Shown here: in pieces, positions 5,699 through 55,279 of the stretch
How the letters are laid out: every line of letters starts with the position of its first letter
Numbering within the stretch: the first letter of the stretch is position 1
NCBI GenBank assembly: GCA_965248765.1
Contig: CBDFKF010000003.1
Location: 457,484-521,483, forward strand
Direction of reading: 5' to 3'
DNA length: 64,000 bases
Source: Alphaproteobacteria bacterium
GTDB lineage: Bacteria; Pseudomonadota; Alphaproteobacteria; VGEJ01
Program-made: the position numbers and the translations under genes
The notes under the pieces: generated by a model
Told to the model about the DNA's origin: nothing
The model's database searches: none
The model's input: the letters and a program-made list of their open reading frames with translations, nothing else

Positions 5699-6315
5699 CC
5701 GTCGGTGAGCTTGTCGTGGAGATTGACGAGCATGCCGGCCGTTGCGCCCCAGATCCGCCGGCCGTCGTAAGGCAGCACGTAAAACTGACGCTCGACGCCA
5801 CGAATGACCATCGTCTCGCGACGGTGGTTGTCGGCGTCGAGGACGAAAGCGAGCGGCACTTCGAACGCGTCGGCGACCTCGAAGGGATCGAGCCTCAAAT
5901 GGAGTTCGGGATCGACGATGCCGACCACCGGAGTTATGCGGAATCCGGTGCCGGTCTCGTAGATATCGAGACGACCGATCACCTCGACGTGGTGCGGCGC
6001 CAACCCGATCTCCTCTTCGGATTCACGAAGTGCGGTTGCGATCGGCCCGTCATCGTGAGGCTCCTCGCGACCACCCGGAAAACTGATCTGGCCGGCGTGG
6101 TCGCGAAGATGCTCGGTACGCTGGGTCAACAGCACCGTCATGCCGCCAGGCCGCGCCACCAACGGCACGAGCACGGCGGCCGCGGTGAATGAGAGACCCT
6201 TCCACGCCCCGGGATTGAGGTCATAATCGCCGCGGAGCCTGGCCAGCGCACGCTTTTCATCGATTCGCACCGCCTCGCCAACGGGATGAAGGCGCGATCT
6301 CAGGAGCGTCTGCAT
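5692..6315 (-). CDS. NUDIX hydrolase, CoA pyrophosphatase-like (NudL family)
   Basis: Nudix box GGREEPHDDGPIATALRESEEEIGL plus upstream LLTQRTEHLRDHAGQISFPGG characteristic of CoA pyrophosphatases; start chosen at MQTLL (6315). Confidence 0.75.
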   Translation of the reverse strand: MQTLLRSRLHPVGEAVRIDEKRALARLRGDYDLNPGAWKGLSFTAAAVLVPLVARPGGMTVLLTQRTEHLRDHAGQISFPGGREEPHDDGPIATALRESEEEIGLAPHHVEVIGRLDIYETGTGFRITPVVGIVDPELHLRLDPFEVADAFEVPLAFVLDADNHRRETMVIRGVERQFYVLPYDGRRIWGATAGMLVNLHDKLTDGC

Positions 6316-6978: not shown

Positions 6979-8010
6979 ATGAGTATAACTGACGACACCA
7001 CTGCCGCCACCGCCGCCCCATCTACGGTGAGTGAGCCGGCAGCAGTGCAGGAGATCGAGGCGCTCGCGACGCAGATCAAGGCCGTACGCGACCACGTCGG
7101 CCAGTTCATATTCGGCCAGGAGGAGGTCGTCGATCAGGCGCTGATCACCTTGCTCTCGGGCGGTCATGCACTGGTGATCGGCGTTCCGGGGCTGGCCAAG
7201 ACCAGACTCGTCGAGACCCTTGCGGTCGTCCTTGGCATGATGGAGAAGCGCGTCCAGTTCACCCCTGATCTCATGCCTGCCGACATCCTCGGATCGGAGG
7301 TGTTGGAGGAATCGGAGAGCGGGCGCCGCTCGTTCCGCTTCATCGAGGGCCCTGTGTTCTGCCAGCTGCTGATGGCCGATGAGATCAATCGCGCCAGTCC
7401 GCGAACGCAATCAGCGCTGCTACAAGCCATGCAGGAGAACGAGGTCTCGGTTGCCGGCCGGCGACATCCCCTGCCCCGCCCCTTCCACGTGCTGGCGACG
7501 CAGAACCCGCTGGAGCAAGAGGGAACCTACCCACTGCCCGAGGCTCAGCTCGATCGCTTCCTGATGCAGATCGACATCGGCTATCCCGACCTCGAGGCCG
7601 AGCGCCGGATGTTGATCGCCACCACGGGGATCGAAGAGCACGCGCCACAGCAAGTGATGACCGCCGATGATCTACGCGCGGCCCAGCGTCTCGTGCGGCG
7701 TGTTCCGATCGGGGAGAGCGTGGTCAAGGCGATCCTCGCGGTGGTCCGGTCCGGACGCCCTGAAGACACCGATATCGAAACGGTACGCGACCACGTGGCG
7801 TGGGGACCGGGGCCGCGCGCCAGCCAAGCTCTTATGCTTGCCTGTCGTGCCCGGGCGCTGTTGGAGGGGCGCCTGGCCCCGTCGGTGGACGACGTCATCG
7901 CGCTCGCCCCGCCAACGCTGCGCCACCGCATGGCGCTCACGTTCGCGGCACGCGCCGAAGGCATCACGATCGTGCAGGTGATCGCGCGCCTGTGCCAGCC
8001 CCTCGGCTGA
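6979..8010 (+). CDS. MoxR-family AAA+ ATPase
   Basis: GHALVIGVPGLAKT (Walker A), LLMADEINRASPRTQSALLQAMQE (Walker B/sensor), classic MoxR layout; start at MSITDD. Confidence 0.85.
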   Translation: MSITDDTTAATAAPSTVSEPAAVQEIEALATQIKAVRDHVGQFIFGQEEVVDQALITLLSGGHALVIGVPGLAKTRLVETLAVVLGMMEKRVQFTPDLMPADILGSEVLEESESGRRSFRFIEGPVFCQLLMADEINRASPRTQSALLQAMQENEVSVAGRRHPLPRPFHVLATQNPLEQEGTYPLPEAQLDRFLMQIDIGYPDLEAERRMLIATTGIEEHAPQQVMTADDLRAAQRLVRRVPIGESVVKAILAVVRSGRPEDTDIETVRDHVAWGPGPRASQALMLACRARALLEGRLAPSVDDVIALAPPTLRHRMALTFAARAEGITIVQVIARLCQPLG

Positions 8011-8028
8011 CCGGACGCGATCGAGACG

Positions 8029-8919
8029 GTGGCTGAATCCGGGAGCGAACAGGCCGAAGTCTTACGTCAGCGGGCGGAACAGCTCGCGGCGCCGTTGCCG
8101 CCTTTGTTGGTCTCGGCCGAGCGAGTGGCCATGACCGTCGCCCAGGGTGTACACGGTCGGCGCCGCGTCGGCTCCGGCGAGACATTCTGGCAGTTCCGGC
8201 GCTATCAGACCGGCGATCCGGCCAGCGCAATCGACTGGCGCACATCGGCCAAGACCCAGCGTCTGTATGTGCGCCAGACCGAGTGGGAGGCGGCCGAGAG
8301 CGTGTGGCTGTGGCGCGATGCCTCGCCCTCGATGCACTACCGCTCGTCGGTCTCAGAGGTCGAGAAGATCGATCGGGCAAACTTGCTGACGCTGGCGCTG
8401 GCGGTGCTGCTGGCGCGCGCCGGCGAGCATGTCGCCCTGTTGGGCACCGATCGCCTGGCCCGGACCGGGCGGGCGGCGATCGCGGGGATCGCGGATGCCT
8501 TCATGCGCGTGCGCGAAGGGCCGAGTCTTCCCCCCTTTGAGCAACTGCCACGGGATGCGCAGATCGTCATCATCGGTGATTTCCTGTCGCCGGTCGCCGA
8601 CCTCGAGAACCGACTGACCCAGTACGCGGGCATCGGCCTTCAGGGACACCTTCTCCAAGTGCGAGATGCCGCCGAGGAGGATCTGCCGTTCACCGGCCGC
8701 GCCCGGTTCGAAGGCTTGGAGGCCGACGGCCAGGTGATGGTGGGCCGAGTGGAAGTATTGCGCGAGAGCTACTTCGAGCGCTTGGCCGCGCGGCGGGCCA
8801 ACCTTACGGCGCTGGCCAGTCGGCTCCATTGGACATTCGCCACCCACCGCACCGACCGACCGCCGGAGACGGCGTTGATGGCGTTGTATGCCGCCCTGTC
8901 GGGAGGTCGGCTACACTGA
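8029..8919 (+). CDS. DUF58 domain protein (MoxR-associated, vWA-like)
   Basis: GETFWQFRRYQTGDPASAIDWRTSAKTQRLYVRQTEWE is the DUF58 hallmark; immediately downstream of moxR-like gene. Confidence 0.8.
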   Translation: MAESGSEQAEVLRQRAEQLAAPLPPLLVSAERVAMTVAQGVHGRRRVGSGETFWQFRRYQTGDPASAIDWRTSAKTQRLYVRQTEWEAAESVWLWRDASPSMHYRSSVSEVEKIDRANLLTLALAVLLARAGEHVALLGTDRLARTGRAAIAGIADAFMRVREGPSLPPFEQLPRDAQIVIIGDFLSPVADLENRLTQYAGIGLQGHLLQVRDAAEEDLPFTGRARFEGLEADGQVMVGRVEVLRESYFERLAARRANLTALASRLHWTFATHRTDRPPETALMALYAALSGGRLH

Positions 8920-51871: not shown

Positions 51872-53602
51872 GTGATGGGGGCGGCGATCACGCAGCTCGA
51901 AGTCAATCGCCGGCTCGCCGCCATCCTCGCCGCTGACGCCGCCGGCTATAGCCGGCTAATGGGCGAGGATGAGGAAGCAACGCTGCGGGCCCTGTCGTCG
52001 CAGCGCGCAGTCTTGGCGCGCTGTATCGACCGGCACCACGGCCGAGTGGTGAGCACGGCAGGCGATGCGGTGCTCGCCGATTTCGCCAGTGTCGTCGACG
52101 CTGTTGCCTGTGCGCTCACAGCGCAGGAGGAGCTGGCGACGGCCCAGGCTGACGAGGCCGAGCGACGGCGGCTGCGCTTCCGAATCGGCGTGCACCTTGG
52201 CGATGTGCTCGCTGCAGGCGGGGAGGTCTACGGCGAGGGCGTCAACATCGCGTCGCGGCTGGGAAGCATCGCCGAGCCGGGCGGCATCTGCGTTTCGGCG
52301 ACCGTCTATGATCTCATCCGCAATAAGCTCCCCGTGGCTGTCGAGCCGTTGGGAGAGCAGCGCTTCGAGAACATCGCGGAGCCGATCAGCGCCTATCGCG
52401 TGCGCCAGCTCGGCGCCGTGCCGCCGGCGCCGTCTGGCGAGCAACTCCGGCCCGACAAGTCGATCGCTGTATTGCCCTTCGAGAACCTGAGCCGCGATCC
52501 TGAACAGAACTACTTCGCTGATGGCATGACCGAGGAGATACTCACCTCACTCGCCCGCCTGCCAGAGCTGTTCGTCATCGCCCGCAACTCGAGCTTCGTC
52601 TACAAGAACCAACCCACGGACGTACGCGAGGTCAGCCGCCAGCTCGGCGTCAAGTACATCCTCGAAGGCAGCGTCAGGCGGGCCGGCGAACGCGTACGTA
52701 TCTCGACCCAGCTCGTGGACGGGGAGGCGGGGGTGCAGATGTGGGCGGAACGCTATGACGGCGTCCTCGACGATGTCTTCGGGCTGCAGGACGATGTCAC
52801 CCAGCAGATCGTCTCCGCCTTGGAGCTGCGCCTCTCGCGAGAACAGCGTGCCGGGCGGCTGGTCGAGACCGGCACCGCACAGGTGCAAGCGTACGATTAC
52901 TTCCTACGCGGACGCGAGCAGGTTCTCCGCTACACCCAGGAAGCCAATGAAACGGCACGCGCCATGTTCGAGAAGGCGATCGAGATCGACCCGAGCTACG
53001 CGCCCGCCGTGGTCGACCTGGCCGAGACGTGCTATTATGAGTCGGTCCACAACTGGGTGGTCCCCACCGACTCCACGCCTCTCGACCGCGCCGAGCAATT
53101 TGCACACCGAGCTTTGCAACTAGACGCGCGGTTGCCAGCTGCTCACATGATCCTGGCGGCCGTCCTGCTGTGGCGGAAGCGCTTCGACGAGGCCATCGCA
53201 TCCTATCGCCACGCCATCGCCCTCGATCCCAATGACGCCGATGGCTATGCCGGCCTTGCCGAGGCGCTAACGTGTGACGCCGAGGGCCAAGCGGCGCTCG
53301 CCGAGATTGGCCACGCCAAGCGCCTCAACCCGCACTTTTCCCCGTGGTACCTGACGGTCGAGGGTGAGGCGTACCTGTCGCTCGAGCGCTACGAGGAGGC
53401 GATCGCGGCCTTTGAGCGGAGCGCGATACGCAATCCCGACCTCGTGGGCAACCACTTGCTGCTAGCGGCCTGCTACGACGAGATCGGCGAAGAAGCGAAG
53501 GCACGCGCCGCGATGGCGTGTTGCCTCGAGCTCAGCCCGGCGCTGAACATGCGGTCGGTCATCGAACAAGCGCCGATCCGCCAGCCGGCCGTGGTGGAGT
53601 GA
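51872..53602 (+). CDS. class III adenylate/guanylate cyclase with TolB-like linker and TPR repeats (intact paralog)
   Basis: ...VVSTAGDAVLADF...GVHLGDV... cyclase domain; TPR-like C-terminus. Confidence 0.8.
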   Translation: MMGAAITQLEVNRRLAAILAADAAGYSRLMGEDEEATLRALSSQRAVLARCIDRHHGRVVSTAGDAVLADFASVVDAVACALTAQEELATAQADEAERRRLRFRIGVHLGDVLAAGGEVYGEGVNIASRLGSIAEPGGICVSATVYDLIRNKLPVAVEPLGEQRFENIAEPISAYRVRQLGAVPPAPSGEQLRPDKSIAVLPFENLSRDPEQNYFADGMTEEILTSLARLPELFVIARNSSFVYKNQPTDVREVSRQLGVKYILEGSVRRAGERVRISTQLVDGEAGVQMWAERYDGVLDDVFGLQDDVTQQIVSALELRLSREQRAGRLVETGTAQVQAYDYFLRGREQVLRYTQEANETARAMFEKAIEIDPSYAPAVVDLAETCYYESVHNWVVPTDSTPLDRAEQFAHRALQLDARLPAAHMILAAVLLWRKRFDEAIASYRHAIALDPNDADGYAGLAEALTCDAEGQAALAEIGHAKRLNPHFSPWYLTVEGEAYLSLERYEEAIAAFERSAIRNPDLVGNHLLLAACYDEIGEEAKARAAMACCLELSPALNMRSVIEQAPIRQPAVVE

Positions 53603-53655: not shown

Positions 53656-53952
53656 CTAGTCAGCCGTTGAGGCGAACCGATCGAGGCGCGTGACCGACGG
53701 CCCCTCCTCGGCGCGGCCCTTCAACCCCTCAGCGAAGGGCTTGAAGTGCGGCTGTGCCTGAAAGCGCTGCTGCGCAGCTTCATCGGACATCCAGGCGTGA
53801 TGCACGAACGAGACGCCGTCCTCCTTGCGGTAGACGGTGTAGCGATAACCCGGATCCGGCTGCTGCTTCATCGCACCGATGAATTCGCCGATCGCGGCCT
53901 CTTGGTCGGCCACTTTGTCGGCGGGAACGCGGTATTGGATCAGGAAGTCCAT
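53656..53952 (-). CDS. ABM (antibiotic biosynthesis monooxygenase)-like / Dabb-fold small protein
   Basis: 98 codons MDFLIQYRVPADKVADQEAAIGEFIGAMKQQPDPGYRYTVYRKEDGVSFVHHAWMSDEAAQQRFQAQPHFKPF; GGAGG before ATG. Confidence 0.55.
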   Translation of the reverse strand: MDFLIQYRVPADKVADQEAAIGEFIGAMKQQPDPGYRYTVYRKEDGVSFVHHAWMSDEAAQQRFQAQPHFKPFAEGLKGRAEEGPSVTRLDRFASTAD

Positions 53953-54041
53953 CAGTCTTTCCTCCGTGGTTGGGGTGGACGTCGGGTCGTGCGAGCCGCC
54001 TCCCATTCGGCAAGCTCGCGAAAGAGTTGGTCGTGGAGGGC

Positions 54042-54806
54042 CTACGCGGTACCGCCCTCGAGATCGGCTTCGCGAACGATCGCCGCGCGCCGAGCGAAGT
54101 TCTCGCCCGCCTCGGCGGTCGCTGGCCCGATCGCATCGATGTCGGCGTCGCGGCGCTCGGGCGCCGCGCGATCGCGAAAGCCTTTGCACTGCTGGCAGAC
54201 ACCGGTCTTGCCGATCAGCGCGCACATCCCCTCGAAGGTCGCCTGCATTGCGCCGCGCCCGGCACTGAGATGGTGGCGAAGCACCGATTCAGTGATATCG
54301 AGCACCTTGGCCGCCTCGCGGTTGGAGAGCTCGAACACTTCGCGTAGCAGCACCGCCGCTTGTTGCTCGGGCGGCAAGGACCGGCTGACGCAGCTAAAGC
54401 AAAAGGCGACATGCTCGGCGACCTCGTAGCGGTAGTGCGGATCGCCCTCGATCGCCTCGAGACTCGCGAGGTGCTCGGGAGAGGTGCTGCCGACACGCTG
54501 GCCATTGACCTGCGCATCCGGCCCCCAGCGCCCGCGGTGCCGTAACATATCGAGGCAGATGTTGGTCGCGATCCGGAACAGCCAGGTCTTGAGGCTGGCC
54601 TCGCCGCGGAAGCCGTCGATCTCGGCGAGGGCGCGGACGAGCGTCTCCTGCACCGCGTCCTCTGAATCGGCCCGGTTGGCGAGCAGCCGATAGGCAAGCG
54701 AGCGCAGGAGCTTGAGGTGCGGCGTGATCAAAACCCCGGAGGCATCGCCGTCGCCCGCCTGGGCAGCCGCGAGGAGTGTCGTCGTCTCTGTCGGTCGTGC
54801 ATCCAT
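54042..54806 (-). CDS. ECF-type RNA polymerase sigma-70 factor with Cys-rich C-terminal extension
   Basis: Sigma-2 region (LLRSLAYRLLANRADSEDAVQETLVRA...LKTWLFRIATNICLDMLR) and sigma-4 (LPPEQQAAVLLREVFELSNREAAKVLDITESVLRHHL) followed by ~60 extra residues containing C-x8-CxxC; additional CxxC in the linker. Confidence 0.8.
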   Translation of the reverse strand: MDARPTETTTLLAAAQAGDGDASGVLITPHLKLLRSLAYRLLANRADSEDAVQETLVRALAEIDGFRGEASLKTWLFRIATNICLDMLRHRGRWGPDAQVNGQRVGSTSPEHLASLEAIEGDPHYRYEVAEHVAFCFSCVSRSLPPEQQAAVLLREVFELSNREAAKVLDITESVLRHHLSAGRGAMQATFEGMCALIGKTGVCQQCKGFRDRAAPERRDADIDAIGPATAEAGENFARRAAIVREADLEGGTA

Positions 54807-54901
54807 GGATTGCCCCTTCATAGTTTGACGATCGGCCGACGGAAACCCGCCAAACCATTGACATGACGTAATTTTTTTCGCTACCGCCTTGGCCGTGCAA
54901 C

Positions 54902-55279
54902 TCAGTCCGTGGTGTGCTCCACTCGGACCGGATCGCCCGCCGCCACCGCGCTCAAGGCGCGAACGTCGGACAGCGCGCGTCCCCAGATGTTGCAGGGCGA
55001 GGCCAGCCGGATTTCATCGCCTATCGAGATCGGCGTCCTTCCATAGCCGAGCGCGATAGCATCGCCGTCGGGCCAAAACGCGAGCTCGCCCACGTCCACG
55101 ACCGCCCGCGCAGCGGGCTCGGGCTCAGCCTGAATCGGCGTCGAGAAATATACCTCCTCGCCCCACGTCTGCGCCCGCGATTCGAACGGTGCCGCGGCCA
55201 ACAAGGCATTGGCGGTCGGGGTATCGAAGAGCTCGGCCTCTATGGTGACCGTGCCGCACACCAGCCTGAGTTTGCGCAT
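54902..55279 (-). CDS. DUF3830 (cyclophilin-like fold) protein
   Basis: MRKLRLVCGTVTIEAELFDTPTANALLAA...WGEEVYFSTP...GELAFWPDGDAIALGYGRTP conserved pattern. Confidence 0.55.
   Translation of the reverse strand: MRKLRLVCGTVTIEAELFDTPTANALLAAAPFESRAQTWGEEVYFSTPIQAEPEPAARAVVDVGELAFWPDGDAIALGYGRTPISIGDEIRLASPCNIWGRALSDVRALSAVAAGDPVRVEHTTD

Follow-up and report, generated by a model that had tools for sequence, protein, structure and literature searches.

Locus organisation and gene identity

The window analysed here, a 64,000-nucleotide (nt) stretch of an Alphaproteobacteria bacterium contig (CBDFKF010000003.1, positions 457,484 to 521,483), carries on its reverse strand a gene for a sigma factor of the extracytoplasmic function (ECF) type with a C-terminal tail, preceded by a predicted promoter and followed by a small ABM-like gene. 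The maximal open reading frame (ORF) of the sigma gene spans 54042..54821 (−, 259 aa). The start is more likely the ATG at 54806 (MDARP), preceded by the ribosome-binding site AAGGGG, than 54821, because the predicted −10 element ends at 54827, which gives a protein of 254 aa (54042..54806, −). The standard sigma-2 and sigma-4 regions reported by the first-pass annotation are both recovered by Pfam, as Sigma70_r2 at residues 31–98 (E = 7e-19) and Sigma70_r4_2 at residues 147–191 (E = 8e-11). Assignment to the ECF (group 4) sigma-70 factors follows from scores of 22.8 bits to Sigma70_ECF (cut-off 21.1) and 73.9 bits to TIGR02937 (cut-off 42.9). Such generic ECF models are the only ones whose thresholds are passed, all subfamily NCBIfam models remaining far under their cut-offs; the SigG-type model gives 123 bits and the SigZ (ECF238) model 58 bits.

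The window copy is a truncated allele lacking the last helix of the tail. P0001, a 284-aa protein 99% identical to the window sigma factor and encoded on a contig (L001) that is 99.3% identical to the window over ∼11 kb of aligned DNA, runs 30 residues further (QALHDQLFRELAEWEAARTTRRPPQPRRED). Relative to L001, a single C-to-T change has turned the codon CAG (Gln255) into a premature TAG at 54042-54044 (−). The 29 codons past this stop remain in frame as the severed 3′ end of the ancestral ORF (53952..54041, −; ALHDQLFRELAEWEAARTTRRPPQPRRKD and stop), which encodes the last conserved helix (255–275 in the structure model) and ends in a TGA overlapping the ATG of the ABM-like gene (TGATG). The figure of about 60 extra C-terminal residues given by the first-pass annotation is thus an artefact of the TAG codon, the tail of the family comprising about 95 residues. 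Since the nonsense codon removes the last helix, the window allele could be either deregulated, by analogy with truncations of ECF41 and ECF56 factors, or inactive.

A conserved His/Cys set and tail define the family

A search of 5.8 billion proteins yielded ∼85 full-length relatives of 260–290 aa, Bacteroidota members among them, sharing 73% to 35% identity; after these came ECF sigma factors bearing a SnoaL_2 domain. Alignment of 79 family members (P0001 numbering, used below for conservation and structure) shows W75, L88, H132, R184, C195, G202, C204, Q206 and C207 to be invariant, with C136, C139 and K200 conserved in at least 90%. The pattern H..xC[FL]xC is present in 77 of the 79 homologues and C-x8-C-x-Q-C in every one, with a constant distance of 63 residues between the His and the first Cys of the C-terminal motif, which places both motifs far beyond chance. 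In the window protein the C-terminal motif, C200-x8-C209-x2-C212, is CALIGKTGVCQQC (residues 200–212; codons 54186..54224, −) and lies directly past the sigma-4 recognition helix, as the C-x8-CxxC that the first-pass annotation had picked out in the extra residues. That annotation had also noted a second CxxC, CFSC, in the linker that joins sigma-2 to sigma-4. CFSC is indeed present (residues 141–144), but we read it as part of H137-x3-C141-x2-C144 (HVAFCFSC; codons 54390..54413, −), a motif with the spacing seen in Zn-binding anti-sigma (ZAS) proteins, on what is predicted to be the first sigma-4 helix, as opposed to a loose linker. The C-terminal extension is conserved in orthologues, five Cys and one His being kept across phyla, so that the refuting condition of a non-conserved extension, set by the first-pass annotation, does not apply.

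The tail is confined almost solely to this clade. A profile of the tail alone matched 192 clusters at E ≤ 1e-3 among 1.84 billion representatives, nearly all at positions ∼180–270 of 260–300-aa proteins or in fragments, while Pfam searches with 32 isolated tails gave only scattered chance matches and a PDB search with the tail profile gave a single chance match (E = 0.45). In P0152 (268 aa), P0204 (224 aa), P0176 (143 aa) and P0180 (448 aa) the tail is instead N-terminal in a longer protein or lies within a much longer one, which may reflect errors of gene calling or different architectures. In a neighbour-joining tree built on the sigma core alone, all 77 full-length members form one clade, apart from 34 SnoaL-type ECF sigma factors, none of which (0/34) contains H-x3-C-x2-C. 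The family is a real, well-delimited ECF clade with its own tail, invariant His/Cys set and, as shown below, group-specific promoter and minimal operon of detoxification type. When one genome was scanned for each species, at least 593 species genomes proved to have a family locus, of which the best 80 loci all come from metagenome-assembled genomes (MAGs), mostly of Acidobacteriota and Myxococcota, with some from Proteobacteria and others; a few family MAGs are labelled Clostridia or ‘Heliomicrobium’.

Predicted structure of the sigma factor

An AlphaFold2 (AF2) model built with the family alignment has a mean pLDDT (predicted local distance difference test) of 92.7 and a pTM (predicted template modelling score) of 0.90. 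H132, C136 and C139 are located on helix 129–141, which we read as the first helix of sigma-4, since three further helices (146–157, 162–169 and 173–194) come after it. C195 directly follows the last of these, taken as the recognition helix, and C204 and C207 stand at the beginning of helix 205–213, which is succeeded by helices 233–246 and 255–275; past C-x8-C-x2-C the protein continues for ∼70 residues with three helices.

The model is compact and, in fold comparisons, resembles sigma factors bound to anti-sigma factors, for example ZAS-bound SigW. RNA polymerase-bound SigH aligns over just 90 residues, and sigma-2 is therefore predicted to be held with sigma-4 in a closed arrangement, in which the tail helices would occupy the place of an anti-sigma factor. 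Compared in isolation, the tail has no recognisable fold and no fold similarity to anti-sigma domains.

A group-specific promoter

A promoter motif search of the upstream spacer, one of the checks proposed in the first-pass annotation, identified the predicted ECF-type promoter TTGGCGG-N16-CGTC at 54827..54853 (−), with the −35 element at 54847-54853 and the −10 element at 54827-54830. Scanned with a position weight matrix, the 64-kb window has this site as its sole strong match (27 bits, the runner-up reaching 4.2). Both blocks are kept between the window and L002, a locus whose sigma protein is ∼70% identical, and loci with unrelated surroundings (L003, L007, L038 and L084) have the exact motif, with its constant 16-nt spacer, upstream of sigma. 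In L031 it lies upstream of a short-chain dehydrogenase/reductase (SDR) gene that overlaps the sigma start, and in Acidobacteriota TTGGCGGAA-N14-CGAC precedes, by ∼60 nt, a Glyoxalase/VOC gene (117 aa) that is itself 5′ of the sigma gene. A blind search for pairs of k-mers in the DNA immediately 5′ of the sigma genes yielded no dominant motif, since in most loci the promoter stands before the gene that precedes sigma; within its output, weak TTGGC/TGGCG…CGTC pairs supplied the motif, which was then confirmed by direct pattern search. Of 86 non-duplicate loci, 66 have the motif in degenerate form on the sense strand within 1.4 kb upstream of sigma, where 0.87 would be expected. We therefore propose TTGGCGG-N16-CG(T/A)C as the predicted group-specific promoter, through which the sigma gene is predicted to be autoregulated. 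From the position of the promoter it follows that the start is likely the ATG at 54806 and that the predicted transcription unit comprises the sigma gene and the ABM-like gene, with the cyclophilin-like gene further upstream outside it.

Two variations on this arrangement were seen. Upstream of sigma or its operon, L005, L055, L072 and L087 combine a variant −35, TTGGCAGG, with a CCGTCT −10. In the VOC-sigma operon of Acidobacteriota (L016-L088) the 5′ leader, ∼60 nt from the −10 to the VOC ATG, contains a conserved stretch (…ACAGCAGGCCAAATTCAAT…GGAG), which may be a regulatory element of the 5′ untranslated region or may reflect mere relatedness.

The unusual A7 tract remarked upon in the first-pass annotation is present in the spacer (54872-54878, −), 5′ of the −35 element and 19–25 nt from it, but it is not a conserved feature, being A5 in L001 (GAGAAAAATT) and absent from L002. 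Nothing supports reading the tract as a terminator or as a component of a promoter of the sigma-70 type, and neither kind of element was found in the spacer upstream of the sigma gene. An ECF41-like candidate in the same spacer, TGTCAAT-N15-CGTC, was rejected, as neither that CGTC nor TGTCAAT is conserved in L002.

The comparison with L001 extends to the promoter. The sigma genes of the two strains differ by 5 synonymous and 5 non-synonymous changes, the latter including the stop and F23S (54738-54740 in the window), at a conserved position. In L001 the sigma ORF is intact, but its −35 element (∼5950-5960) reads TTGTCTG and not TTGGCGG, with two mismatches. Two strains 99.3% identical each have a different lesion in the sigma system (Q255 to stop with F23S in the window, −35 mismatches in L001), which in their lineage may be in decay or subject to a shift in selection.

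Neighbouring genes

Immediately 3′ of sigma is a gene for a 98-aa protein of the dimeric α/β-barrel type (53656..53952, −). Its description as an ABM/Dabb-fold protein in the first-pass annotation is borderline, the ABM model scoring 23.0 bits against a cut-off of 23.1, and we refer to it as ABM-like. The protein is 84% identical to its L002 orthologue, and the gene is equally placed in L001 and L002; we predict co-transcription with the sigma gene and, where the allele is intact, translational coupling to it. The 125-aa product of the upstream gene (54902..55279, −) is cyclophilin-like as had been reported, matching PF04126 (Cyclophil_like, E = 4e-37), but the accompanying DUF3830 label is rejected, Pfam giving no DUF3830 (PF12903) match. 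This gene lies upstream of the group-specific promoter, 38 nt after aroC, and is syntenic in close relatives only, so that it probably belongs to the aroC transcript and not to the sigma unit, contrary to its earlier reading as a flanking partner of sigma.

Within ±5 kb the remaining neighbours are, on the ABM side, a convergent Guanylate_cyc+TPR gene followed by TlyA/FtsJ and DXS, and, on the cyclophilin-like side, AroC, FabI and PPDK. The Guanylate_cyc+TPR gene (51872-53602, +) encodes 576 aa; its L001 counterpart (7205-8242) encodes 345 aa with TPR matches only, and blastn shows two segments (∼106 and ∼488 nt) of this region of the window to be missing from L001. By Pfam, no gene for an anti-sigma factor, zf-HC2 protein or membrane protein adjoins the window sigma gene among these ±5 kb neighbours, in agreement with the first-pass annotation. 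Nor was an anti-sigma gene found around seven diverse members for which curated gene calls were annotated with Pfam, or next to sigma in the further loci scanned.

Crude ORF calls in GC-rich loci gave many spurious neighbours, and only recurrent or Pfam-confirmed ones were used. Co-directional genes, some adjacent to sigma and some a few genes off, include an SDR gene overlapping sigma (L005), GNAT, zinc-dependent alcohol dehydrogenase (Zn-ADH) and SDR genes (L003), DUF2269, YCII and OYE genes (L008), Zn-ADH and SnoaL genes (L010) and a DUF1330 gene (L025). Neither the Pfam-annotated neighbourhoods nor the scanned neighbours included a gene for metal efflux, a P-type ATPase, a CDF protein or a multicopper oxidase. 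In three unrelated lineages the gene directly after sigma is of the small dimeric α/β-barrel type, namely ABM-like (window 53656-53952), YCII (L008, 5010-5378) and DUF1330 (L025, 5867-6193), families that we take to belong to one Pfam clan. An alphaproteobacterial relative has in this position, 3 nt past the sigma stop, a 30-aa ORF with no family match (L003, 5584-5676; L004, 4732-4824). In the acidobacterial-type loci L015, L036 and L040 the sigma gene is followed, on the opposite strand, by a gene for a predicted membrane protein of ∼124 aa (MAENVERLERES…) that has no Pfam match and is not family-wide.

Relation to known sigma factor systems

The first-pass annotation likened the locus to ECF groups in which a fused C-terminal domain takes the place of an anti-sigma factor and senses metal or redox state. 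This holds in so far as no anti-sigma gene is adjacent and the nearest relatives, by sequence and by fold, are of the ECF56/ECF41 type, whose regulatory extensions are likewise fused; sensing of metal or redox state by the Cys cluster is putative. In ECF41 (SigJ, Ecf41Bli) a fused SnoaL-type domain controls activity, and its partial truncation results in 20–120-fold more activity (PMC3426412); the sister group ECF56 (M. tuberculosis SigG, Streptomyces SigG1/SVEN_4562) likewise has a SnoaL/NTF2-like extension and is activated by partial truncation, and it controls glyoxalase-domain genes, its regulons including glyoxalases (bioRxiv 10.1101/2020.01.30.927608). The family shares with both the fused extension and small regulons, in its own case predicted, of oxidoreductase- or glyoxalase-type genes beside the sigma gene, and with ECF41, whose target promoter is TGTCACA-N16-CGTC (PMC3426412), a bipartite promoter whose spacer is 16 nt long and whose −10 is CGTC. 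The −35 element differs, being TTGGCGG here, TGTCACA in ECF41 and CGATGAGTT in ECF56. Unlike the extensions of ECF41, ECF56, ECF294 and ECF295, moreover, the tail is all-helical and Cys/His-anchored in prediction, with no SnoaL_2 match for the whole protein or any of the 32 tails, and the sigma-4 motif and separate core clade set the family apart from its SnoaL-type relatives.

H-x3-C-x2-C is the spacing of Zn-binding redox-sensitive anti-sigma factors (PMC8999054), and the family resembles SigR-RsrA and other ZAS systems in this motif, in a compact model similar to ZAS-bound SigW and in the thiolate-Zn switch, answering to oxidants or electrophiles, that we propose below. It differs from them in carrying the motif inside the sigma factor itself, on the first sigma-4 helix, in lacking a zf-HC2 Pfam match and in a tail fold unlike anti-sigma domains.

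Cys-rich extensions are also known from CorE and CorE2 (formerly ECF44, now ECF238), which adjoin metal genes (PMC4937300, PMC8999054). The CorE-like factors have CxC where the family has H-x3-C-x2-C (in 77 of 79 members), and their terminal Cys-rich domain is short (20–38 aa, or 28–38 aa where 6 Cys are counted), as opposed to 3 Cys followed by ∼70 further residues here. Their neighbours and targets serve metal homeostasis, the partners here being VOC, SDR and barrel enzymes, and core similarity to ECF238 is the weaker (58 bits to the SigZ model). In OrbS, the iron starvation sigma factor of Burkholderia, which carries its own Fe(II) sensor, a Cys-rich C-terminal region modulates activity without an anti-sigma factor (PMC9023288). 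OrbS nonetheless belongs to a FecI/PvdS-like clade, and it has a C-x2-C-x3-C-x5-C motif, a siderophore regulon and no His/Cys motif in sigma-4, unlike the family described here. The main text of the ECF reclassification mentions Cys-rich extensions just for ECF238, ECF287 (Actinobacteria) and ECF288 (Firmicutes) and describes no group with the present features (PMC7826278). ECF287 and ECF288 differ from the family in that its loci are mostly from Acidobacteriota, Myxococcota, Proteobacteria and Bacteroidota, and the ECF288 motif CGxxGxGxCxC is absent here (PMC7826278, main text). Literature searches for an ECF group whose sigma factor contains H-x3-C-x2-C, or whose partners in Acidobacteria are glyoxalases, brought up only papers on ECF41, ECF56, ECF238 and OrbS. 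Judged by these main-text descriptions (PMC7826278), the family apparently represents an undescribed ECF group, though one that may already bear a number.

A putative in-cis thiolate-metal switch

The mechanism we consider most likely, if by a modest measure, is an in-cis thiolate-metal switch in a clade of self-regulating ECF sigma factors. The helical tail of ∼95 residues past sigma-4 would regulate the sigma factor in cis. H-x3-C-x2-C on the first sigma-4 helix and C-x8-C-x2-C right after the recognition helix would together position six His/Cys residues for a metal-thiolate centre fastening the tail to sigma-4; the metal would most likely be Zn, on the precedent of ZAS proteins. Once oxidants had oxidised the thiolates, or reactive electrophiles had alkylated them, the tail would come free, and the sigma factor would direct transcription from TTGGCGG-N16-CG(T/A)C promoters of its own gene and of small detoxification-type enzymes: ABM-like here, glyoxalase/VOC in Acidobacteriota, and in other lineages SDR, quinone-reductase-type or other barrel proteins. 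Three elements of this scheme are inferred, namely that a metal is bound, what the signal is and which way the switch works. In a narrower form, to which we give only tentative credence, the protein would be a single-polypeptide equivalent of SigR-RsrA, with a Zn-clamped inhibitory tail from which thiol-reactive electrophiles or oxidants release sigma, inducing the glyoxalase/VOC or barrel-enzyme operon from TTGGCGG-N16-CGWC.

Several points weigh against a switch of this kind. The extensions of CorE/CorE2 and of ECF41 are needed for activity and are not simply inhibitory (PMC4937300, PMC3426412), so that the switch may have either sign. Six ligands exceed the need of one tetrahedral Zn, the closeness of the six residues is presumed from the AF2 model, and the loop C195–C204 has low pLDDT, the sole low-confidence part of the model. 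The functions ascribed to the neighbours depend on broad family names, and an anti-sigma factor may be encoded away from the sigma locus.

The surplus of ligands, five Cys and one His, and the poor definition of the C195–C204 loop in a model made without cofactor would equally suit an iron-sulfur cluster, with the sigma factor sensing O2, NO or iron status directly in the manner of WhiB or FNR. We regard this as improbable: H-x3-C-x2-C is the Zn motif of ZAS proteins, and we know of no classical Fe-S motif with the spacing of this Cys/His cluster. Binding of Cu, Zn/Cd or Fe by the cluster, with metal occupancy switching the sigma factor for metal homeostasis as in CorE, CorE2 and OrbS, could likewise account for a conserved ligand set. 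The motifs are nevertheless different (CxC with C-x4-C-x2-C-x-C in CorE, C-x2-C-x3-C-x5-C in OrbS; PMC9023288), the annotated and scanned neighbours include no metal-handling genes, the operon partners being VOC, SDR and barrel enzymes, and the SigZ (ECF238) model is outscored by the SigG-type model (58 versus 123 bits), all of which makes a metal sensor of this kind unlikely.

The metal site might instead be purely structural, a permanent staple that folds the tail, and regulation could have another source, such as transcriptional control of the autoregulated operon, binding of a small ligand to the tail, a partner protein or proteolysis. Many sites of the Cys4 or Cys3His kind have a structural role, the promoter is predicted to confer autoregulation, and the ECF41 extension is needed for activity and its signal is still unknown (PMC3426412). 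Positive autoregulation free of any input would, however, be bistable or useless, and the invariant Cys beyond four ligands, together with partners of the electrophile-detoxification type, fit a reactive-thiol sensor better; a purely structural site seems to us rather unlikely. The in-cis thiolate-metal switch remains the explanation we favour.

Implications

As regards the window, its sigma gene should in practice be treated as a truncated allele. ECF sigma factors that carry a fused regulatory tail act as the one-component systems of the sigma world, of which only a few types (SnoaL, TPR and CorE-like Cys-rich) have been studied, and the clade would add a new type of tail, with a ZAS-like motif built into sigma-4. 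With the promoter in hand and a predicted regulon of one or two genes the hypothesis is directly testable, and the sigma/promoter pair would be an orthogonal tool for synthetic biology. Being common in Acidobacteriota, a soil phylum both dominant and poorly studied, the clade may point to the way in which these bacteria sense reactive electrophiles or oxidants.
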